Translations under genes and position numbers: made by a program | Shown: positions 571 to 7,403 of the stretch, one piece after another | Numbering within the stretch: position 1 is the first letter of the stretch | Layout of the letters: each line of letters starts with the position of its first letter | IMG/VR virus record: IMGVR_UViG_2706794698_000012 | From: a virus | Lineage: Duplodnaviria; Heunggongvirae; Uroviricota; Caudoviricetes | Reading direction: 5' to 3' (one strand) | Length of the DNA: 7,403 nucleotides | The notes under the pieces: model-generated | What the model was told of the DNA's origin: nothing | The model's input: only the letters and a program-made list of their open reading frames with translations | The model's database searches: none

Positions 571-993
571 TTAATGAACAATGACAGAATCGTCGGAAGA
601 CCCGCCGCCGCTGAAATGCGCTTTCCGGTAAACGGCTTGGACTGCATCATCATGCGCATCAATTGCCGTACTTAACGCTTCCTGCGCCGCCAGTAATGCA
701 CGGCGTTCCAGGGTATCGAAGATGCAGAGTCGGTGACGCAGCTCGCGCGGAAGGATTGCCAGAATTGCTGGGATCAGCTTCTGAATTTTTTCTCTTTGCG
801 TTTTCGTTTCACCTTTCAACCAACGGTGATAGATATTCTGCTGATTATTCCAGTCCTTGCCTGGTACCAGGGGCAATTCGCCGCCCCCCTGGCGCAGATA
901 TTCTTCAGTAATGGCATTGGCTACCCATGCCTGCCCTTTTTCGGCTGCCAGGGCTAACAACACTGACTCGATGTGCTCATGCTTGATTTTCAT
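571..993 (-). CDS. ydaT: Rac prophage protein YdaT (140 aa)
   Basis: Complete ORF in the track (140 aa, MKIKHEHIESVLLALAAEKGQAWVANAITEEYL...). Its ATG (993..991) overlaps the ydaS stop (992..990) in an ATGA arrangement, indicating translational coupling. Confidence 0.9.
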   Translation of the reverse strand: MKIKHEHIESVLLALAAEKGQAWVANAITEEYLRQGGGELPLVPGKDWNNQQNIYHRWLKGETKTQREKIQKLIPAILAILPRELRHRLCIFDTLERRALLAAQEALSTAIDAHDDAVQAVYRKAHFSGGGSSDDSVIVH

Positions 994-1244
994 GAATCAA
1001 CTCCCATCAGCTTTTTCGTAGTAGTTTTATTTCTGCCAATAGTTAAAATTACATCAGCAGAAAATAATCCGTTTGATGCATGAGCGATTTTTTCAGCGTA
1101 ATTTGTTTCGCCGGTATATTCTGTGCGAGGCAATTTTCCGTTATCCATCCATTTGTAGATTGCTCTTTGGCTGACACCACAAACGTCGGCCACAACAGAA
1201 ACGCGAACAGTTTTGATTACATCTTCAAGTGTTTTCTGGTTCAT
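990..1244 (-). CDS. ydaS: Cro-like HTH DNA-binding protein YdaS (84 aa from ATG 1244; the track ORF extends to an upstream ATG at 1316, 108 aa)
   Basis: ATG at 1244..1242 is preceded by GAGGG (plus 1249-1253) at 4 nt spacing. Product MNQKTLEDVIKTVRVSVVADVCGVSQRAIYKWMDNGKLPRT... contains a helix-turn-helix. The 1316 start is disfavoured because it would lie only 7 nt from the divergent racR ATG and has no Shine-Dalgarno. I recall a 98-aa annotation, but no start codon exists at that position here. Confidence 0.8.
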   Translation of the reverse strand: MNQKTLEDVIKTVRVSVVADVCGVSQRAIYKWMDNGKLPRTEYTGETNYAEKIAHASNGLFSADVILTIGRNKTTTKKLMGVDS

Positions 1245-1323
1245 ATCACCCTCACAATGTGAACTTTGAGTACATGCTATAACAGAACTGACAGTACATT
1301 CAAGAGTGAATATCATTGAACTT
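1245..1323. promoter_or_regulatory. Divergent racR / ydaS control region (79 bp) with repeated GAACT-N3-AGTACA elements; putative operators and divergent promoters
   Basis: Sits between divergent repressor-like (racR) and Cro-like (ydaS) genes. AGTACAT occurs at 1269-1275 and 1293-1299 (24 bp apart), each preceded by GAACT (1261-1265, 1284-1288). No Shine-Dalgarno upstream of the racR ATG. Operator and promoter assignment is inference. Confidence 0.5.
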
Positions 1324-1833
1324 ATGGTTCATGAAGATAAAGCGCGTAAAGAGTTCGCCAGTAGGCTTGCGCTAGCCTGTGAAAACGCTGGTTATGAACA
1401 ACATGGAAGGCAGGCAGAAATTGCCCGTCGAATGAAATTAACACCAAAAGCGGTTAGCAAATGGTTTAATGGCGAAACAATTCCTCGCCGAGAGAAATTA
1501 AGGGAATTAGCAACACTCATTGGAACAACACCANNNNNNNNNNNNNNNNNNNNNNNNNNNNNNNNNNNNNNNNNNNNNNNNNNNNNNNNNNNNNNNNNNN
1601 NNNNNNNNNNNNNNNNNNNNNNNNNNNNNNNNNNNNNNNNNNNNNNNNNNNNNNNNNNNNNNNNNNNNNNNNNNNNNNNNNNNNNNNNNNNNNNNNNNNN
1701 NNNNNNNNNNNNNNNNNNNNNNNNNNNNNNNNNNNNNNNNNNNNNNNNNNNNNNNNNNNNNNNNNNNNNNNNNNNNNNNNNNNNGCTTCACTTTATCCCA
1801 TCTCATTTTTTTACACACAAAATGTACTTATAG
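1324..1833 (+). CDS. racR: Rac prophage repressor RacR (CI-like HTH repressor); 3' portion masked, true stop uncertain
   Basis: ATG at 1324 (track ORF starts at GTG 1306). Visible product MVHEDKARKEFASRLALACENAGYEQHGRQAEIARRMKLTPKAVSKWFNGETIPRREKLRELATLIGTTP contains an XRE-type HTH. The frame runs into the N block 1534-1784; the first in-frame stop after the mask is TAG 1831-1833, but the post-mask translation (LHFIPSHFFTHKMYL) looks non-coding, so the real stop is probably inside the mask. Confidence 0.7.
   Translation: MVHEDKARKEFASRLALACENAGYEQHGRQAEIARRMKLTPKAVSKWFNGETIPRREKLRELATLIGTTPXXXXXXXXXXXXXXXXXXXXXXXXXXXXXXXXXXXXXXXXXXXXXXXXXXXXXXXXXXXXXXXXXXXXXXXXXXXXXXXXXXXXLHFIPSHFFTHKMYL
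1534..1784. other. Masked block of 251 N
   Basis: Run of n characters; hides the racR 3' end and part of the racR-ydaG spacer. Confidence 1.
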
Positions 1834-1862
1834 TACTTTACATCAATGAACACAAAGTACAT
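1822..1862. promoter_or_regulatory. Candidate second operator cluster downstream of racR: inverted pair ATGTACT (1822-1828) / AGTACAT (1856-1862), plus 5-bp-arm palindrome GTACT-TAT-AGTAC (1824-1836)
   Basis: Same heptamer as in the racR-ydaS region, here as an inverted pair in an AT-rich segment upstream of ydaG. TATATA-like -10 candidate at 1863-1868. Function is inference. Confidence 0.3.
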
Positions 1863-2036
1863 TATATACCTACCAACCCACCCCGCCCCACAGAACGCAG
1901 GGCAATACTTCGAGTTACCAGGCAGTGGTCAGGGGTTAAGTAGCCAGCCCGAGGCGTATGAACATGACGGCAGGGTTCAGATTTTGCAGTGCAGCAGGTT
2001 TCAGTTCCGCCACCCGGCGTTAAGGGGAGAGATAAG

Positions 2037-2171
2037 ATGGTGCATTACGAAGTAGTTCAGTATTTGATGGATTGTTGCGGTATCACTTACAACCAGGCTG
2101 TGCAGGCTTTACGCAGCAACGACTGGGATCTCTGGCAGGCAGAAGTCGCTATACACAGCAACAAGATGTGA
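2037..2171 (+). CDS. ydaG: Rac prophage small protein YdaG (44 aa)
   Basis: ATG 2037 preceded by GGGGAG (2024-2029). Product MVHYEVVQYLMDCCGITYNQAVQALRSNDWDLWQAEVAIHSNKM, stop TGA 2169-2171. Lies within the longer GTG-initiated track ORF 1989..2171. Confidence 0.75.
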   Translation: MVHYEVVQYLMDCCGITYNQAVQALRSNDWDLWQAEVAIHSNKM

Positions 2172-2181
2172 GATTCGCAAA

Positions 2182-2337
2182 ATGCAAAAAATCGACCTCG
2201 GCAACAACGAATCCCTGGTGTGCGGCGTGTTCCCCAACCAGGATGGAACGTTCACTGCCATGACGTATACCAAAAGCAAAACATTTAAAACCGAAACTGG
2301 TGCGCGCCGATGGTTGGAGAAGCACACAGTAAGCTAA
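2182..2337 (+). CDS. ydaF: Rac prophage small protein YdaF (51 aa)
   Basis: Not in the track (under 60 aa). ATG 2182-2184 to TAA 2335-2337 gives MQKIDLGNNESLVCGVFPNQDGTFTAMTYTKSKTFKTETGARRWLEKHTVS. Weak Shine-Dalgarno. Its stop overlaps the stop of convergent sieB. Confidence 0.7.
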   Translation: MQKIDLGNNESLVCGVFPNQDGTFTAMTYTKSKTFKTETGARRWLEKHTVS

Positions 2338-2822
2338 CGATTAAAACGTCTACTCCTGCTGTTCCAGAATAACTTCATAAAATGGGAGTATTTTTCGGTG
2401 ACGAGATAATAAGAACAGTTTGCGCTATCACTCTGATGTTGAATGATGCCCTTCCGTTCTAATTTTTTCATAACCGGGTTACGGCAAGGAGAAGTGATAA
2501 TAAGATTTCCTGTTTTAAGGAAATCTTTAAATACAGCGATTTCTTTCTCAGATAAACGAAGCAATACTCGTTGCTCTGGTAGTAATGAATAATGCTTTTG
2601 AATATGTGCTCGCAATCTTGAGAAGGAAATGGCGACCACGAAAGAAAAGGCAAAAACGATAATCTGAAAGAGCCAAGGTATTTCAGTATAAGCATTGAAT
2701 GCGACAGTAAACTCTTTCGGTATCAGCCAGAGAGTGAGACCAAAAATGATAATCGTATACATAAGTATTTCGAGTGGCTCGTTAGCAAAAAGTTTCAACA
2801 ATGGAGTAAATACATCCAACAT
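2334..2822 (-). CDS. sieB: Superinfection exclusion protein B (162 aa, two predicted transmembrane segments)
   Basis: ATG at 2822..2820 inside the longer track ORF 2334..2945. Product MLDVFTPLLKLFANEPLEILMYTIIIFGLTLWLIPKEFTVAFNAYTEIPWLFQIIVFAFSFVVAISF... has two hydrophobic stretches near the N-terminus. Recognised as Rac SieB. Confidence 0.9.
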   Translation of the reverse strand: MLDVFTPLLKLFANEPLEILMYTIIIFGLTLWLIPKEFTVAFNAYTEIPWLFQIIVFAFSFVVAISFSRLRAHIQKHYSLLPEQRVLLRLSEKEIAVFKDFLKTGNLIITSPCRNPVMKKLERKGIIQHQSDSANCSYYLVTEKYSHFMKLFWNSRSRRFNR

Positions 2823-3040
2823 ATCAATAACTCTCAACTGTAAGGGTATTGAAATGTTAACACAAGCTCTCGCTGTAGGGGTATAGCCGAGACCACCGAA
2901 GCCCGGAGGTGGTGAAATAAAACCGGGCACAACACGAAGGCGCATTTCCGATATCCATAAAGAGTCGGTCTTGTCTGTTAAATTTAAATGGTGGGAGTGC
3001 GCCTCCGGTTGTAAATAACGACATTGCTGTGTGTAGTCCT

Positions 3041-3088
3041 GGCGGCATCAGTTTTTTTCTTGAAGTTCGGCTGATGTCCGCCCTTTTT
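3041..3088 (+). terminator. Putative intrinsic terminator: stem GGCGGCATCAG (3041-3051) / CTGATGTCCGCC (3071-3082, one bulged T), 19-nt loop, then C + TTTTT (3084-3088)
   Basis: Inverted repeat followed by a T-run, read from the sequence. Orientation is + because the T-run follows the stem only on that strand. The loop is long for a canonical terminator, so confidence is modest. Confidence 0.35.
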
Positions 3089-3263
3089 AAAGTGAATTTT
3101 GTGATGCGGTGAATGCGGCTAAGCGCACGTGGCACAGTTAAAAGTCATGTTAGTCCTTATTGGTTTGGGTGGGAAAGCCGACTGTAATTGTTAACTGGTT
3201 GCAGTCACCTGGAGGCACCAGGCACCGCATCAACAAAGTTCATTTGTAAAAATGGAGATAATT

Positions 3264-3485
3264 ATGATTGCACATCACTTCGGAACTGATGAAATACCAC
3301 GTCAGTGTGTGACTCCTGGCGATTATGTTCTTCATGAAGGCCGGACATATATTGCCTCGGCAAACAATATTAAAAAGCGAAAACTATATATTCGTAACCT
3401 GACCACAAAAACATGCATTACTGACCGCATGATTAAAGTCTTCCTCGGTCGTGATGGTTTACCTGTAAAGGCGGAGTCATGGTGA
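3264..3485 (+). CDS. kilR: Rac prophage killing protein KilR (73 aa; FtsZ / cell-division inhibitor)
   Basis: ATG 3264 preceded by GGAGA (3254-3258) at 5 nt spacing; the track ORF starts at an upstream ATG 3252 without a Shine-Dalgarno. Product [73 protein letters not shown]. Confidence 0.9.
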
Positions 3486-4196: not shown

Positions 4197-6616
4197 TTGA
4201 ATCGACCTGTGCCACTCTGGACTACCTGATCGTTAAGTCAGGTAAAAAACTGAGCAGCTATTTTAAAGCTGTTGCCACGAATTTTCCTGTCGTTAATGAC
4301 CTGCCCGCTGAAGGTGAGATCGATTTTACCTGGAGTGAACGCTATCAACTCAGCAAAGACTCCATGACATGGGAACTAAAACCGGGAGCAGCACCAGACA
4401 ACGCTCACTATCAAGGCAATACCAACGTCAACGGCGAAGACATGACTGAGATTGAGGAGAATATGCTACTCCCAATTTCTGGCCAGGNNNNNNNNNNNNN
4501 NNNNNNNNNNNNNNNNNNNNNNNNNNNNNNNNNNNNNNNNNNNNNNNNNNNNNNNNNNNNNNNNNNNNNNNNNNNNNNNNNNNNNNNNNNNNNNNNNNNN
4601 NNNNNNNNNNNNNNNNNNNNNNNNNNNNNNNNNNNNNNNNNNNNNNNNNNNNNNNNNNNNNNNNNNNNNNNNNNNNNNNNNNNNNNNNNNNNNNNNNNNN
4701 NNNNNNNNNNNNNCGGTGCTAATGCTGGCGGCGGAAACCTCACCGATCGCGGCGAAGGTTTCGTACACGATCTGACGTCACTGGCGCGGGACGTAGCCAC
4801 TGGCGTACTGGCCCGTTCAATGGATCTGGACATCTATAACCTTCATCCGGCACACGCTAAACGCATTGAGGAAATTATCGCTGAAAATAAACCGCCCTTT
4901 TCTGTTTTCCGCGACAAATTCATCACCATGCCTGGCGGGCTGGATTATTCCCGCGCCATCGTGGTTGCGTCCGTAAAAGAAGCACCAATTGGGATCGAGG
5001 TCATCCCCGCGCACGTCACTGAATATCTGAACAAAGTACTGACTGAAACCGATCATGCCAACCCTGATCCGGAAATCGTGGATATTGCCTGCGGTCGCTC
5101 CTCTGCCCCGATGCCGCAGCGAGTAACAGAAGAAGGAAAACAGGATGATGAAGAAAAACCGCAACCATCTGGAACAACGGCAGTTGAACAGGGAGAGGCT
5201 GAAACAATGGAACCGGACGCAACTGAACATCATCAGGACACGCAGCCGCTGGATGCTCAGTCACAGGTAAATTCTGTTGATGCGAAATATCAGGAACTGC
5301 GGGCAGAACTCCATGAAGCCCGGAAAAACATTCCATCAAAAAATCCTGTCGATGCCGATAAATTGCTTGCTGCATCACGTGGTGAATTTGTTGACGGAAT
5401 TAGCGACCCGAACGATCCGAAATGGGTAAAGGGGATCCAGACTCGCGATTGTGTGTACCAGAACCAGCCAGAAACGGAAAAAACCAGCCCGGATATGAAT
5501 CAACCTGAGCCAGTAGTGCAACAGGAACCGGAAATAGCCTGCAATGCCTGCGGCCAGACTGGCGGGGATAACTGCCCTGACTGTGGTGCGGTGATGGGCG
5601 ACGCAACATACCAGGAAACATTCGATGAAGAGAGTCAGGTTGAAGCTAAGGAAAATGATCCGGAGGAAATGGAAGGCGCTGAACATCCGCACAATGAGAA
5701 TGCTGGCAGCGATCCGCATCGCGATTGCAGTGATGAAACTGGCGAAGTCGCAGATCCCGTAATCGTAGAAGACATAGAGCCAGGTATTTATTACGGAATT
5801 TCGAATGAGAATTACCACGCGGGTCCCGGTGTCAGTAAGTCTCAGCTCGATGACATTGCTGATACTCCGGCACTGTATTTGTGGCGTAAAAATGCCCCCG
5901 TGGACACCACAAAGACAAAAACGCTCGATTTAGGAACCGCTTTCCACTGCCGGGTACTTGAGCCGGAAGAATTCAGTAACCGCTTTATCGTAGCACCTGA
6001 ATTTAACCGCCGGACAAACTCCGGAAAAGAAGAAGAGAAAGCGTTTCTGAGGGAATGCGCAAGCACAGGAAAAACGGTTATCACTGCCGAAGAAGGCCGG
6101 AANNNNNNNNNNNNNNNNNNNNNNNNNNNNNNNNNNNNNNNNNNNNNNNNNNNNNNNNNNNNNNNNNNNNNNNNNNNNNNNNNNNNNNNNNNNNNNNNNN
6201 NNNNNNNNNNNNNNNNNNNNNNNNNNNNNNNNNNNNNNNNNNNNNNNNNNNNNNNNNNNNNNNNNNNNNNNNNNNNNNNNNNNNNNNNNNNNNNNNNNNN
6301 NNNNNNNNNNNNNNNNNNNNNNNNNNNNNNNNNNNNNNNNNNNNNNNNNNNNNNNNNNNNNNNNNNNNNCAGTGACGGTTATGAAGCACAGTTTGGAGTG
6401 CAGCCAACTTTCGTTTTTCTGGTTGCCAGCACAACTATTGAATGCGGACGTTATCCGGTTGAAATTTTCATGATGGGCGAAGAAGCAAAACTGGCAGGTC
6501 AGCTGGAATATCACCGCAATCTGCGAACCCTGGCTGACTGCCTCAATACCGATGAATGGCCAGCTATTAAGACGTTATCACTGCCCCGCTGGGCTAAGGA
6601 ATATGCAAATGACTAA
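4016..6616 (+). CDS. recE: Exodeoxyribonuclease VIII RecE; start codon masked, start coordinate estimated
   Basis: A single frame carries ...[32 protein letters not shown]... (from 4199), [53 protein letters not shown]... and the C-terminus ...[20 protein letters not shown], stop TAA 6614-6616. The frame is the same on both sides of the N blocks 4488-4713 and 6103-6369. Start 4016 assumes the recalled 866-aa length; my recalled racC-recE spacing would instead put it near 4107, so the true start is anywhere in 4006-4196. The track start at 3890 is rejected because it overlaps racC. Confidence 0.85.
4488..4713. other. Masked block of 226 N inside recE
   Basis: Run of n characters; recE frame is preserved across it. 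Confidence 1.
6103..6369. other. Masked block of 267 N inside recE (C-terminal nuclease region)
   Basis: Run of n characters; recE frame is preserved across it. Confidence 1.
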
Positions 6617-7403
6617 GCAACCACCAATCGCAAAAGCCGATCTGCAAAAAACTCAGGGAAACCGTGCACCAGCAGCAATTAAAAATAACGACGTGATTAG
6701 TTTTATTAACCAGCCATCAATGAAAGAGCAACTGGCAGCAGCTCTTCCACGCCATATGACGGCTGAACGTATGATCCGTATCGCCACCACAGAAATTCGT
6801 AAAGTTCCGGCGTTAGGAAACTGTGACACTATGAGTTTTGTCAGTGCAATCGTACAGTGTTCACAGCTCGGACTTGAGCCCGGTAGCGCCCTCGGTCATG
6901 CATATTTACTGCCTTTTGGTAATAAAAACGAAAAGAGCGGTAAAAAAAACGTTCAGCTAATCATTGGCTATCGCGGCATGATTGATCTGGCTCGCCGTTC
7001 AGGTCAAATCGCCAGCCTGTCAGCCCGTGTTGTCCGTGAAGGTGACGAGTTTAATTTCGAATTTGGCCTTGATGAAAAGTTAATACACCGCCCAGGAGAA
7101 AACGAAGATGCCCCTGTTACCCACGTCTATGCTGTCGCAAGACTGAAAGACGGAGGTACTCAGTTTGAAGTTATGACGCGCAAACAGATTGAGCTGGTGC
7201 GCAGCCAGAGTAAAGCTGGTAATAACGGGCCGTGGGTAACTCACTGGGAAGAAATGGCAAAGAAAACGGCTATTCGTCGCCTGTTCAAATATCTGCCCGT
7301 ATCAATTGAGATCCAGCGTGCAGTATCAATGGATGAAAAGGAACCACTGACAATCGATCCTGCAGATTCCTCTGTATTAACCGGGGAATACAGTGTAATC
7401 GAT
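6609..7403 (+). CDS. recT: Recombinase RecT (single-strand annealing protein), first 265 codons; 3' end beyond window
   Basis: ATG 6609 overlaps the recE stop by 8 nt; AAGGA Shine-Dalgarno at about 6596-6600. Product [106 protein letters not shown]... is open to the window end. Not in the track because it is truncated. Confidence 0.95.

Follow-up and report, generated by a model that had tools for sequence, protein, structure and literature searches.

Organization of the locus

The window, by which we mean the whole 7403-nt stretch of viral DNA that was analysed, contains two divergently transcribed genes of the helix–turn–helix (HTH) class, separated by a 79-bp intergenic gap (1245–1323), the length given in the preliminary description of this DNA. 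The genes and the block in which they lie are as follows.

990–1244, minus strand: cro-like gene, 84 aa, ATG at 1244, stop codon at 990–992, Shine–Dalgarno (SD) sequence GAGGGTG upstream
1324–1746, plus strand: cI-like repressor gene, 139 aa in unmasked copies, end inferred to within 3 nt in a run of N (1535–1784)
1000–1870, no strand: immunity cassette (cro-like gene, OR, cI-like gene, OL/PL), 871 bp, replaced as a single block relative to K-12 Rac

The two genes had been named racR and ydaS, but their products match the CI and Cro proteins of phage HK022 instead. The Cro-like protein, for which RefSeq gives the same 255-nt CDS in an unmasked sister locus of 13.2 kb (L001), is 62% identical to HK022 Cro (45/73 residues, E = 2e-34), whereas only 18 HTH residues can be aligned with K-12 YdaS, six of them identical. 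Similarly, the DNA-binding domain of the repressor is 47% identical to that of HK022 CI (47/99 residues, E = 6e-32), and its recognition helix, TPKAVSKWFNGE, differs from the HK022 helix, TPKAISKWFNGE, by one conservative residue; with K-12 RacR it has only a 33-residue HTH stretch in common (12/33 identical). The gene names are thus to be corrected to those of an HK022-type cI/cro cassette. A repressor CDS running to ~1833, as the N-masked reading frame suggests, was rejected: the unmasked copy encodes 139 aa and ends at ~1743–1746 within the N run, and the downstream pair of sites described below therefore lies ~80–120 bp past the stop codon.

At the DNA level, blastn finds 99% identity to K-12 Rac at 1–999 and 1871–3300 and no match in between, while HK022 matches at 70% over 1074–1484 and at 82% over 1806–1866. 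The surroundings are those of Rac, with ydaU and ydaT on one side and ydaG, ydaF, sieB, kilR, ydaE, racC, recE and recT on the other, as judged by DNA identity, Pfam and RefSeq. The cassette occurs in 1049 of 5426 complete E. coli genomes (~19%), O157:H7 EDL933 included, and with its sites intact in the sequenced phages Tritos and vB_EcoS-673R7. In the literature on the CP-933R repressor, on HK022 together with Rac and on leaderless 933W, we found no description of it.

Five repressor-type dyads underlie the AGTACAT repeats

The preliminary description had drawn attention to the heptamer AGTACAT, and its coordinates are exact: 1269–1275, 1293–1299 and 1856–1862 on the plus strand and 1822–1828 on the minus strand, with no fifth copy in 7403 bases. 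The two copies in the divergent region are indeed 24 bp apart, with GAACT before each (1261–1265 and 1285–1289). Four copies compare with 0.47 expected in the window, a number reached in 0 of 200 dinucleotide shuffles; L001 has the identical four copies and no others, and the statistic is weaker there (1.0 expected, with 2/200 shuffles reaching four). However, the direct repeat is not the actual unit. Each AGTACAT is the right half of a 13–17-bp inverted repeat, (AT)G-W-AC-N5-GT-W-C(AT), and the heptamer's final two bases belong to the less constrained positions of this dyad, 1275 being variable in four haplotypes. The core of this dyad, GWAC-N5-GTWC, occurs five times in the window (at 1261, 1285, 1318, 1824 and 1848) against 0.15 expected, and none of 200 shuffles reaches five. 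All five cores lie inside the cassette and so move together with the repressor gene, and the 13.2 kb of L001 contain no further core elsewhere. The sites, which we name after their lambdoid equivalents, are listed here.

1259–1275: OR1-equivalent operator, GTGAACTTTGAGTACAT, core 1261–1273 at -63 from the cI ATG, holds the first AGTACAT
1283–1299: OR2-equivalent operator, CAGAACTGACAGTACAT, core 1285–1297 at -39, holds the second AGTACAT
1316–1332: OR3-equivalent operator, TTGAACTTATGGTTCAT, core 1318–1330 at -6, across the repressor ATG (1324)
1822–1838: OL2-equivalent operator, ATGTACTTATAGTACTT, palindromic core 1824–1836, holds ATGTACT, homologous to the oL site ATGTACTATTGGTACTT of X16093
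1846–1862: OL1-equivalent operator, ATGAACACAAAGTACAT, core 1848–1860, holds the fourth AGTACAT

Two upstream sites had been proposed, but OR has three: the additional dyad at 1316–1332, which spans the repressor ATG, had been overlooked because it contains no AGTACAT. The centres of the OR sites are 24 bp (OR1–OR2) and 33 bp (OR2–OR3) apart. Downstream of the repressor, the palindrome GTACTTATAGTAC at 1824–1836 stands as described, whereas the ATGTACT regarded as a separate flanking element is the palindrome's own left arm (1822–1828). OL1 and OL2 are 24 bp apart, likewise in HK022, S9-5, Omnitron and Tritos. Seen in this way, the AGTACAT words would be the halves of five predicted phage-repressor sites of a type long known from HK022.

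In the unmasked sister loci, the stretch from the repressor stop to OL2 and the region ~330 bp beyond OR hold no core dyad that might serve as an OL3 or O_FR equivalent; as the window itself is masked at 1535–1784, an extra dyad in that run is excluded via these loci only.

Promoters and correspondence with HK022 and lambda

Three promoters can be placed relative to these sites.

1276–1303, minus strand: putative PR-equivalent promoter, -35 TTGAAT (1303–1298), 16-nt spacer, TGt and -10 TATAGC (1281–1276)
1288–1316, plus strand: predicted PRM-equivalent promoter, CTGACA-17-TATCAT, 10/12 matches in the promoter scan
1837–1865, plus strand: predicted PL-equivalent promoter, TTTACA-17-CATTAT, 9/12 matches in the promoter scan

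The loosely described heptamer thereby gives way to three predicted promoters and five operators of defined position. The PR equivalent would read into the cro-like gene, ydaT and ydaU, with a start expected near 1269 on the minus strand; a consensus scan missed it because its -10 hexamer, TATAGC, does not end in the conserved T, and its hexamers are position-for-position homologous to pR of X16093 (TTGACT-16-CATAAT). OR1 lies just downstream of the predicted -10, and OR2 overlaps the -35 of PRM as well as the spacer and -35 of PR. On the other side, the PL equivalent is homologous to pL of X16093 (TTTACA ... CATCAT), and its hexamers hardly vary across 29 OL haplotypes. OL2 abuts or overlaps the PL -35 and OL1 overlaps the spacer and -10. 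The predicted start, at ~1871–1873, falls exactly at the cassette edge, and transcription would proceed into ydaG (2037–2171) and ydaF (2182–2337). The earlier suggestion of promoters towards ydaT–ydaU and into ydaG–ydaF is thus borne out at the level of predicted layout.

The observation that the repressor ATG lacks an SD sequence was also correct on reading the sequence upstream of 1324. Since the PRM -10-like TATCAT (1311–1316) ends 7 nt before this ATG, a leaderless repressor mRNA is predicted, starting at 1323/1324. A TAnnAT hexamer stands at equal distance from the ATG in 8/8 compared relatives; relatives in the Pasteurellaceae have an SD sequence before the repressor.

The GenBank entry for HK022 (X16093) annotates three oR and two oL sites together with pR and pL, and the dyads and hexamers of the window occupy the same positions. 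Both share the operator dyad itself, the OR cores at -63, -39 and -6 with the last one holding the ATG, a pair of OL sites with 24-bp spacing around TTTACA ... CATYAT, and the order cro ← OR → cI → OL/PL →. The OR1 core has the position of the cro-proximal oR site of X16093, the -39 position of the OR2 core is common to HK022 and the loci of 13 other species, and HK022 oR3 matches the 15-bp OR3 site, TGAACTTATGGTTCA, letter for letter. Nevertheless, there are distinguishable differences between the two regions. The first is the repressor tail, which is DicA-like and helical in the window and a Peptidase_S24 domain in HK022. The second is the distance between OR and OL, which is ~560 bp in the window, whereas the HK022 cores are ~830 bp apart by our measurement and ~700 bp in PMC8053113. 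In addition, nothing in the window corresponds to the additional site that HK022 has 330 bp beyond OR, and the genes that follow PL are ydaG and ydaF of Rac rather than nun.

The likeness to the lambda OR/OL arrangement noted in the preliminary description appears right in substance, as the sequence has the order OR, repressor gene, OL seen in X16093. As in lambda, PR and PRM diverge from three operators, a second operator set covers PL beyond cI in the same direction as cI, and the cI start codon lacks an SD sequence. Unlike in lambda, there are two OL sites rather than three, OR2 and OR3 are 33 bp apart, the PRM -35 lies inside OR2, and the repressor has no autocleavage domain. Owing to the absence of rexAB genes, the immunity region is also shorter than that of lambda. 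No similarity between the operator sequences and those of lambda was seen.

Proposed control circuit

Taken together, the sites and their enrichment, the homology and positional identity with HK022 and the constraint on the half-sites (see below) lead us to interpret 1000–1870 as a lambdoid immunity cassette of HK022 specificity that replaces racR–ydaS of K-12 and carries five predicted operators, three in OR and two in OL; we put the probability of this reading at about 0.85. Binding, the order of occupancy, cooperativity, OL–OR looping and the start sites are what we infer from it. Dimers of the 139-aa repressor would bind the dyads through the HK022-like HTH. Occupancy of OR1 and OR2 would block PR and with it the cro-like gene, ydaT, ydaU and beyond, and occupancy of OL1 and OL2 would block PL, silencing ydaG and ydaF and probably the genes on to kilR, racC, recE and recT. 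At high repressor concentration, filling of OR3, which holds the ATG, would turn off the leaderless PRM transcript. The Cro-like protein would be expected to use these sites too, but towards lytic growth. For HK022 CI itself, cooperative binding to OR and OL (Carlson & Little, 1993, as cited in PMC8053113) as well as OL–OR looping (PMC8053113) have been reported.

Conservation of the sites among relatives

Conservation in related prophages was examined in 39 species-representative genomes with a homologue of the CI N-terminal domain (40–100% identity), and it bears out the recurrence of the motif. At least two exact cores lie within 95 bp upstream of the repressor ATG in 38/39 loci, a core crosses the ATG in 30, and an exact 24-bp-spaced pair follows the repressor in 13, against a background of 0.10 cores per kb in the same survey. 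The dyad positions are identical in relatives with 40–75% repressor identity. Within the flanks examined, neither a strict nor a one-mismatch OL pair was found in Klebsiella phage 2b, Salmonella SI8 and phi24B, the OL of which would be either farther off or more degenerate.

Among 82 close loci, anchored at 1797 and hence independently of the operator pattern, 3 of 40 core half-site columns are variable compared with 31 of 104 non-core columns (Fisher p = 0.003, only indicative because the 82 loci are not independent samples), and variation in the N5 spacers is free (9/25 positions). The half-sites, as read from these alignments, are therefore under selective constraint.

This pattern bears on the most serious alternative, namely that the sites, although descended from genuine HK022-type operators, are now non-functional relics because the prophage is defective, either unoccupied or occupied without consequence. 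Rac-like elements are usually defective, and the predicted PR -10 (TATAGC) is poor. Relics would not, however, be expected to show half-sites depleted of variation beside variable neighbouring bases and spacers, nor would 1047 of the 5426 complete E. coli genomes be expected to keep the repressor and Cro reading frames intact. The cassette is also present with intact sites in sequenced phages such as those named above, and the analogous repressor module of K-12 Rac is active and essential (PMC5700373). We regard decay of this kind as unlikely.

The downstream pair as DNA or RNA element

A further alternative concerns only the downstream palindrome and heptamers, which could be an RNA element – a terminator or stabilizing hairpin ending the repressor transcript – rather than PL operators. 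GTACTTATAGTAC could fold into a 5-bp hairpin followed by TTTACAT, it lies ~80 bp past the repressor stop and is transcribed in the same direction, and conserved arms around a variable centre fit a stem–loop as well as an operator. However, the stem is just 5 bp and mainly A–T, and the terminator reading is unsupported because a scan of 900–2400 found no terminator-like site. Conservation is just as strong at the second site, GAACACAAAGTAC, which as RNA would have A facing A and hence lacks self-complementarity. Moreover, the dyad is also present in the divergent region, which is not transcribed, the two downstream sites lie across -35 and -10 hexamers where pL is annotated in HK022, and 13 distant species show the 24-bp spacing as well. 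An RNA element is thus improbable, even more so than decay of the sites. As for other RNA signals, the 169-nt PL leader (1872–2040) gave no indication of a put- or nut-like antitermination RNA, its fold being no more stable than shuffles (z = +1.3), and Rfam at the gathering threshold, applied to the window, L001 and Tritos, found no match in the window and RalA, sok and DicF only in the longer loci.

Comparison with K-12 Rac and other prophages

The preliminary description had taken RacR or YdaS as the controlling protein, a view that would make AGTACAT a RacR word. The slot is that of racR–ydaS in Rac, with flanks 99% identical to K-12 and equal gene order and orientation. Nevertheless, neither orthologue is present, the similarity of the two proteins to RacR and YdaS being confined to the short HTH stretch. 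The K-12 RacR operators, footprinted and predicted, follow WTAGGC-n3-GCCTAW (PMC9638921). This dyad is at chance level in the window, with one two-mismatch match, inside coding sequence, against 1.7 expected, and the window dyad is in turn absent from 5.5 kb of K-12 Rac. The sequence thus already contradicts control by a K-12-type RacR, which we consider highly improbable. Still weaker is the notion that the repeats are short A/T-rich words arising by chance in A/T-rich intergenic DNA, a near-negligible prospect which the modest heptamer enrichment in L001 might suggest but which the strong dyad-level statistic and the identical positions in distant relatives contradict.

The HK022-type cassette and the K-12 racR–ydaS–ydaT module (PMC5700373, PMC9638921, PMC11879457), despite occupying the same chromosomal and prophage slot between near-identical flanks, have mutually exclusive operator sets and repressor and Cro families unrelated beyond the HTH. 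In both, the repressor and Cro-like genes diverge and an operator lies across the repressor ATG, and the CII-like ydaT gene and the YdaT box of K-12 are kept in the window. A leaderless repressor promoter has been reported for the K-12 module. We find six RacR-type dyads in K-12 Rac, all at OR or OL positions; K-12 Rac would thus have its own OL/PL, apparently undescribed so far, with the candidate promoter TTGACA-17-TATAGT, the racR–ydaG intergenic region in question lying at about 1419620–1419680 of NC_000913.3. Such a pair would explain why ydaF, ydaG, kilR and racC rise 40–70 fold when RacR falls (PMC6765115; bioRxiv 10.64898/2026.09.06.749655). The paaR2–ydaS–ydaT region of CP-933P (PMC8630535) and dicA–dicC of Qin offer further parallels, with a similar slot, OR-type repeats and a PL/OL analogue, which in CP-933P has been demonstrated experimentally (PMC8630535). 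However, the CP-933P recognition repeats are of the GTTTAGTAA type, unlike the window dyad, and the window has no toxin–antitoxin pair behind the repressor.

Architecture of the repressor and implications

The C-terminal S24 domain of lambdoid CI proteins mediates dimerization, pairwise cooperativity and looping. In Pfam searches, HK022 CI has this domain (Peptidase_S24, 2.6e-19), whereas the 139-aa repressor matches HTH_3 only and no Peptidase_S24 was found. The dimerization, cooperativity and looping of HK022 are therefore not simply transferable. The repressor instead follows the short DicA-type plan, in which an HTH_3 domain is followed by a helical C-terminal tail (~55 aa) and a peptidase domain is lacking: it is 29% identical to K-12 DicA over 112 aa, tail included (E = 5e-15), and its alignment to almost the whole of the NCBIfam DicA subfamily model reaches 56.8 bits, which, lying below the curated cut-off of 101, indicates DicA architecture rather than membership of the DicA subfamily. 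A PDB sequence search with the repressor found only the P22 C2 N-terminal domain (E = 0.006). The protein annotated as 'CI repressor' in phage Tritos is 100% identical to it. We tentatively propose, while thinking it rather doubtful, that a DNA-binding domain of HK022 specificity has been combined with a non-cleavable DicA-type tail, giving an SOS-blind repressor that still runs the full set of OR1–3 and OL1–2; pairwise cooperativity, and possibly OL–OR looping, would then have to come from an entirely different oligomerization domain.

For the approximately one-fifth of E. coli that carry the cassette, EDL933 included, the results obtained with K-12 RacR – its operators, the C-protein cross-talk and its essentiality – should not be carried over. 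The cassette predicts that kilR, recET and other genes would be jointly de-repressed upon loss of the repressor. Should the combination of HK022 domain and DicA tail prove true, its presence in ~19% of complete genomes could make much of E. coli immune to phages of HK022 immunity.

Gene order and borders of the cassette

ORFs, Pfam domains and the RefSeq annotation of a sister locus (L001, NZ_CP023366; 99.8% identical to the window) identify the window as a segment of an E. coli Rac-like prophage in the orientation opposite to that of K-12.

Features of the window (coordinates, strand, description)
1-507, minus: ydaU'
571-993, minus: ydaT
990-1244, minus: cro-like gene (84-aa HTH protein)
79 bp: gap between the divergent cro-like and HTH_3 genes
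1259-1275, 1283-1299, 1316-1332: predicted operators OR1, OR2, OR3
1303-1276, minus: predicted PR, TTGAAT (1303-1298), 16 nt, TGt-TATAGC (1281-1276)
1288-1316, plus: predicted PRM, CTGACA-17-TATCAT
1324 (start), plus: HTH_3 gene (repressor)
1822-1838, 1846-1862: predicted operators OL2, OL1
1837-1865, plus: predicted PL, TTTACA-17-CATTAT
2037-2171: ydaG
2182-2337: ydaF
after ydaF: sieB (minus), then kilR, ydaE, racC, recE, recT

The window is 99% identical to the Rac prophage of K-12 MG1655 at 1-999 and 1871-3300, and DNA similarity is absent in between. This cassette of 871 bp resembles coliphage HK022 DNA (70% at 1074-1484 and 82% at 1806-1866). Its right border (1870/1871) coincides with the predicted PL start (about 1871-1873) and its left border (999/1000) with the cro stop and the ydaT start; the cassette thus extends from PL to the cro end, as a classical 'imm' block does. 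The names racR and ydaS, used for its divergent genes in the preliminary description, do not apply, since similarity of the encoded proteins to RacR (12/33) and YdaS (6/18) is confined to a short part of the HTH.

A perfect box for the CII-like YdaT, TTGATT-TTCATG-AATCAA, lies at 983-1000, exactly at the left edge, where it covers the stop codon of the cro-like gene (990-992) and the first codon of ydaT (991-993, minus strand). It matches the CP-933P consensus TTGATT-N6-AATCAA (PMC9986795), whereas K-12 has TTGATT...AATCAT at this position. The cro-like gene may contain a PRE-like promoter, analogous to K-12 PracR4 (PMC11879457).

Predicted operators and promoters

The heptamer AGTACAT, singled out earlier, indeed occurs at 1269-1275, 1293-1299, 1822-1828 (inverted) and 1856-1862, with no further copies in the window (0.47 expected; none of 200 shuffles reaches four), and the 24-bp spacing, GAACT prefixes, 79-bp intergenic distance and palindrome at 1824-1836 are all as first given. 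The heptamer is not the constrained unit, however: with the flanks read, every AGTACAT is the right half of a dyad, and the T that ends the first heptamer (1275) is variable in four haplotypes. The dyad core GWAC-N5-GTWC occurs five times in the window (1261, 1285, 1318, 1824 and 1848) against 0.15 expected, a count reached by 0/200 shuffles; extended by two bases per side, the sites read ATGWAC-N5-GTWCAT. The fifth site (1316-1332) had been overlooked because it spans the ATG at 1324 and has GGTTCAT in the place of AGTACAT. The fully unmasked L001 (13.2 kb) has the same five cores and zero additional ones.

In the GenBank record of the HK022 nun and immunity region (X16093), oR is annotated with three sites and oL with two, along with pR and pL. 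Oriented as the window and counted from the cI start codon, HK022 has cores at positions -63, -39 and -6, and two more, 24 bp apart, follow cI; these are the window offsets. The 15-bp OR3 site, TGAACTTATGGTTCA, is identical in both, while OL reads ATGTACTATTGGTACTTTACATTAATGAACTTTAAGTACATCAT in HK022 and ATGTACTTATAGTACTTTACATCAATGAACACAAAGTACATTAT in the window. The proposed lambda OR/OL-like layout therefore stands as regards operators on both sides of the repressor gene, at HK022 positions, but not with K-12 RacR as the binder.

PL was predicted by a consensus scan and falls on the annotated HK022 pL; OL2 adjoins its -35 element and OL1 overlies its spacer and -10 element. The predicted PR falls on the annotated HK022 pR (TTGACT-16-CATAAT) and is the weakest of the promoter inferences, since its -10 element lacks the final T. 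PRM, predicted by a promoter scan, ends 7 nt ahead of the ATG; a Shine-Dalgarno (SD) sequence is absent, and a TAnnAT hexamer stands at the same distance from the ATG in 8/8 compared relatives. These three observations support, short of proof, the earlier suggestion of a leaderless repressor mRNA.

Repressor and Cro-like proteins

The 3' portion of the HTH_3 gene is masked by an N run (1535-1784). The repressor of L001 has 139 aa (6365-6784), which places the gene end at about 1743-1746 and not at 1833 as the masked ORF implies. Over its first ~100 residues the repressor shares 47% identity with HK022 CI (E 6e-32), the recognition helices being TPKAVSKWFNGE and TPKAISKWFNGE, respectively; the 84-aa protein shares 62% with HK022 Cro (E 2e-34). 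The repressor tail is DicA-like: the protein has 29% identity to K-12 DicA across 112 aa, tail included, with the NCBIfam DicA model scoring 56.8 bits, under its cut-off of 101. The repressor is a chimera of an HK022 CI-like N-terminal domain and a DicA-like C-terminal part of ~55 aa (LNPRQKIIIDLLDELPDSETD... in the repressor, LSPKELELLELFNALPESEQD... in DicA); this domain swap is a mildly interesting feature of a widespread cassette. As Peptidase_S24 is absent, the repressor is probably not RecA-cleavable, and given this and the DicA-like tail, HK022-like dimerisation, cooperativity, looping and induction mode cannot be assumed.

The sequenced phage Tritos encodes an identical repressor, annotated 'CI repressor'. 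Its record gives Cro as a 108-aa ORF (L004 3167-3493) with an ATG inside OR (corresponding to window 1316). This call is probably wrong, since an SD precedes the 84-aa start (corresponding to window 1244), which agrees both with the RefSeq annotation and with HK022 Cro. Between the repressor ATG and OL2 the window has 500 bp, but L001, Tritos and most IMG/VR relatives have 497 bp and two have 498 bp; a 3-nt length difference is thus concealed in the N run (compared with L001 6576-6822), and may represent an additional codon or an indel in the 3' UTR.

Proposed working

All functional statements on the cassette derive from homology and sequence statistics. HK022 CI is reported to bind OR and OL cooperatively and to loop them (PMC8053113). 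By homology, repressor dimers on OR1+OR2 and OL1+OL2 would silence PR and PL, OR3 across the ATG would confer negative autoregulation on a putatively leaderless PRM transcript, and Cro would act at the same operators. GenBank has contained the HK022-type operator family and its arrangement ever since sequencing of the HK022 immunity region, and the general OR/OL logic is textbook, shown again for CP-933P; a literature search found no description of this particular cassette.

Conservation

Cores at -63/-39/-6 recur in Salmonella S9-5, Citrobacter Omnitron, Klebsiella 2b and HK022, and the 24-bp pair with TTTACA between the sites in Tritos, S9-5, Omnitron and HK022; phi24B and SI8, whose 933W-type regions are more distant, retain -62 and -6. 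An alignment of the N-terminal domains of seven CI proteins, used to scan a single genome from each species, yielded 39 usable loci (40-100% identity) from Enterobacterales, Pasteurellaceae and one Pseudomonas. Within 95 bp upstream of the ATG, 38 of them carry two or more exact cores and 23 carry three or more; a core crosses the ATG in 30/39, and an exact 24-bp pair follows within 1.6 kb downstream in 13/39, against a background of 0.10 cores per kb elsewhere. In an alignment of 82 near-identical loci (IMG/VR, L001, Tritos), anchored independently of the operators, 3/40 core half-site columns vary compared with 31/104 other non-anchor columns (Fisher p = 0.003, only indicative as the loci are related); the N5 centres vary at 9/25 positions. 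The expected conservation of the motif in related prophages is thus borne out.

The cassette is widespread, being present in 1049/5426 complete E. coli genomes. That the sites are dead relics is unlikely in view of the constrained half-sites, the genes intact in 1047 genomes and the presence of the cassette in sequenced phages. The downstream palindrome is also unlikely to act as an RNA hairpin or terminator: OL1 lacks self-complementarity, the dyad recurs in OR, which is untranscribed, and a sequence scan of 900-2400 found no terminator-like site. The positional conservation rules out repetition by chance.

The first repressor codons (ATG GTT CA.) double as the right half of OR3 (window 1318-1332 and relatives), and the N-terminus MVQ/MVH is conserved across Enterobacterales homologues, apparently through constraint of the operator on the coding sequence. 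In Pasteurellaceae homologues, the three sites have moved to about -82/-58/-25, an SD (AAGGTGA) is present and the N-terminus is MIT/MIS.

Other cassettes in this kind of slot

The target of K-12 RacR is WTAGGC-n3-GCCTAW, from footprints and comparison (PMC9638921). With up to two mismatches, it occurs six times in 5.5 kb of K-12 Rac, four of them at the racR-ydaS region. This word and GWAC-N5-GTWC are mutually exclusive between the window and K-12 Rac, and K-12 RacR as the binder of the window sites is excluded on sequence grounds.

The other two K-12 dyads, TAGGCTATGCCTA and TAGGTAATGCCTA, lie 25 bp apart downstream of racR, in the racR-ydaG intergenic region (2627-2668 of NC_000913.3 1417000-1422500), immediately before homology with the window resumes; a near-consensus promoter between them, TTGACA-17-TATAGT, reads into ydaG. 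We predict that they form an OL/PL analogue. The RacR papers examined place operators only in the racR-ydaS region and call the RacR regulon and ydaFG uncharacterised (PMC9638921, PMC11014345). When RacR falls, ydaF, ydaG, ydaE, racC and kilR rise 40-70 fold (RNA-seq, PMC6765115; bioRxiv 10.64898/2026.09.06.749655), an induction of ydaFG, kilR and racC that the predicted pair would explain. A PL/OL analogue has been shown experimentally in CP-933P (PMC8630535). Judged from K-12 Rac, CP-933P and the window, the slot as a rule holds a repressor gene with operators of its own on either side, and the operator word differs from cassette to cassette.

K-12 Qin has the same layout (1350-1435 and 1860-1935 of NC_000913.3 1646500-1649500): TTAGC/TTAGT-type repeats lie between dicC and dicA and recur after dicA around CTTGACC...TAATCT, ahead of ydfA, a DUF1391 homologue of ydaF.
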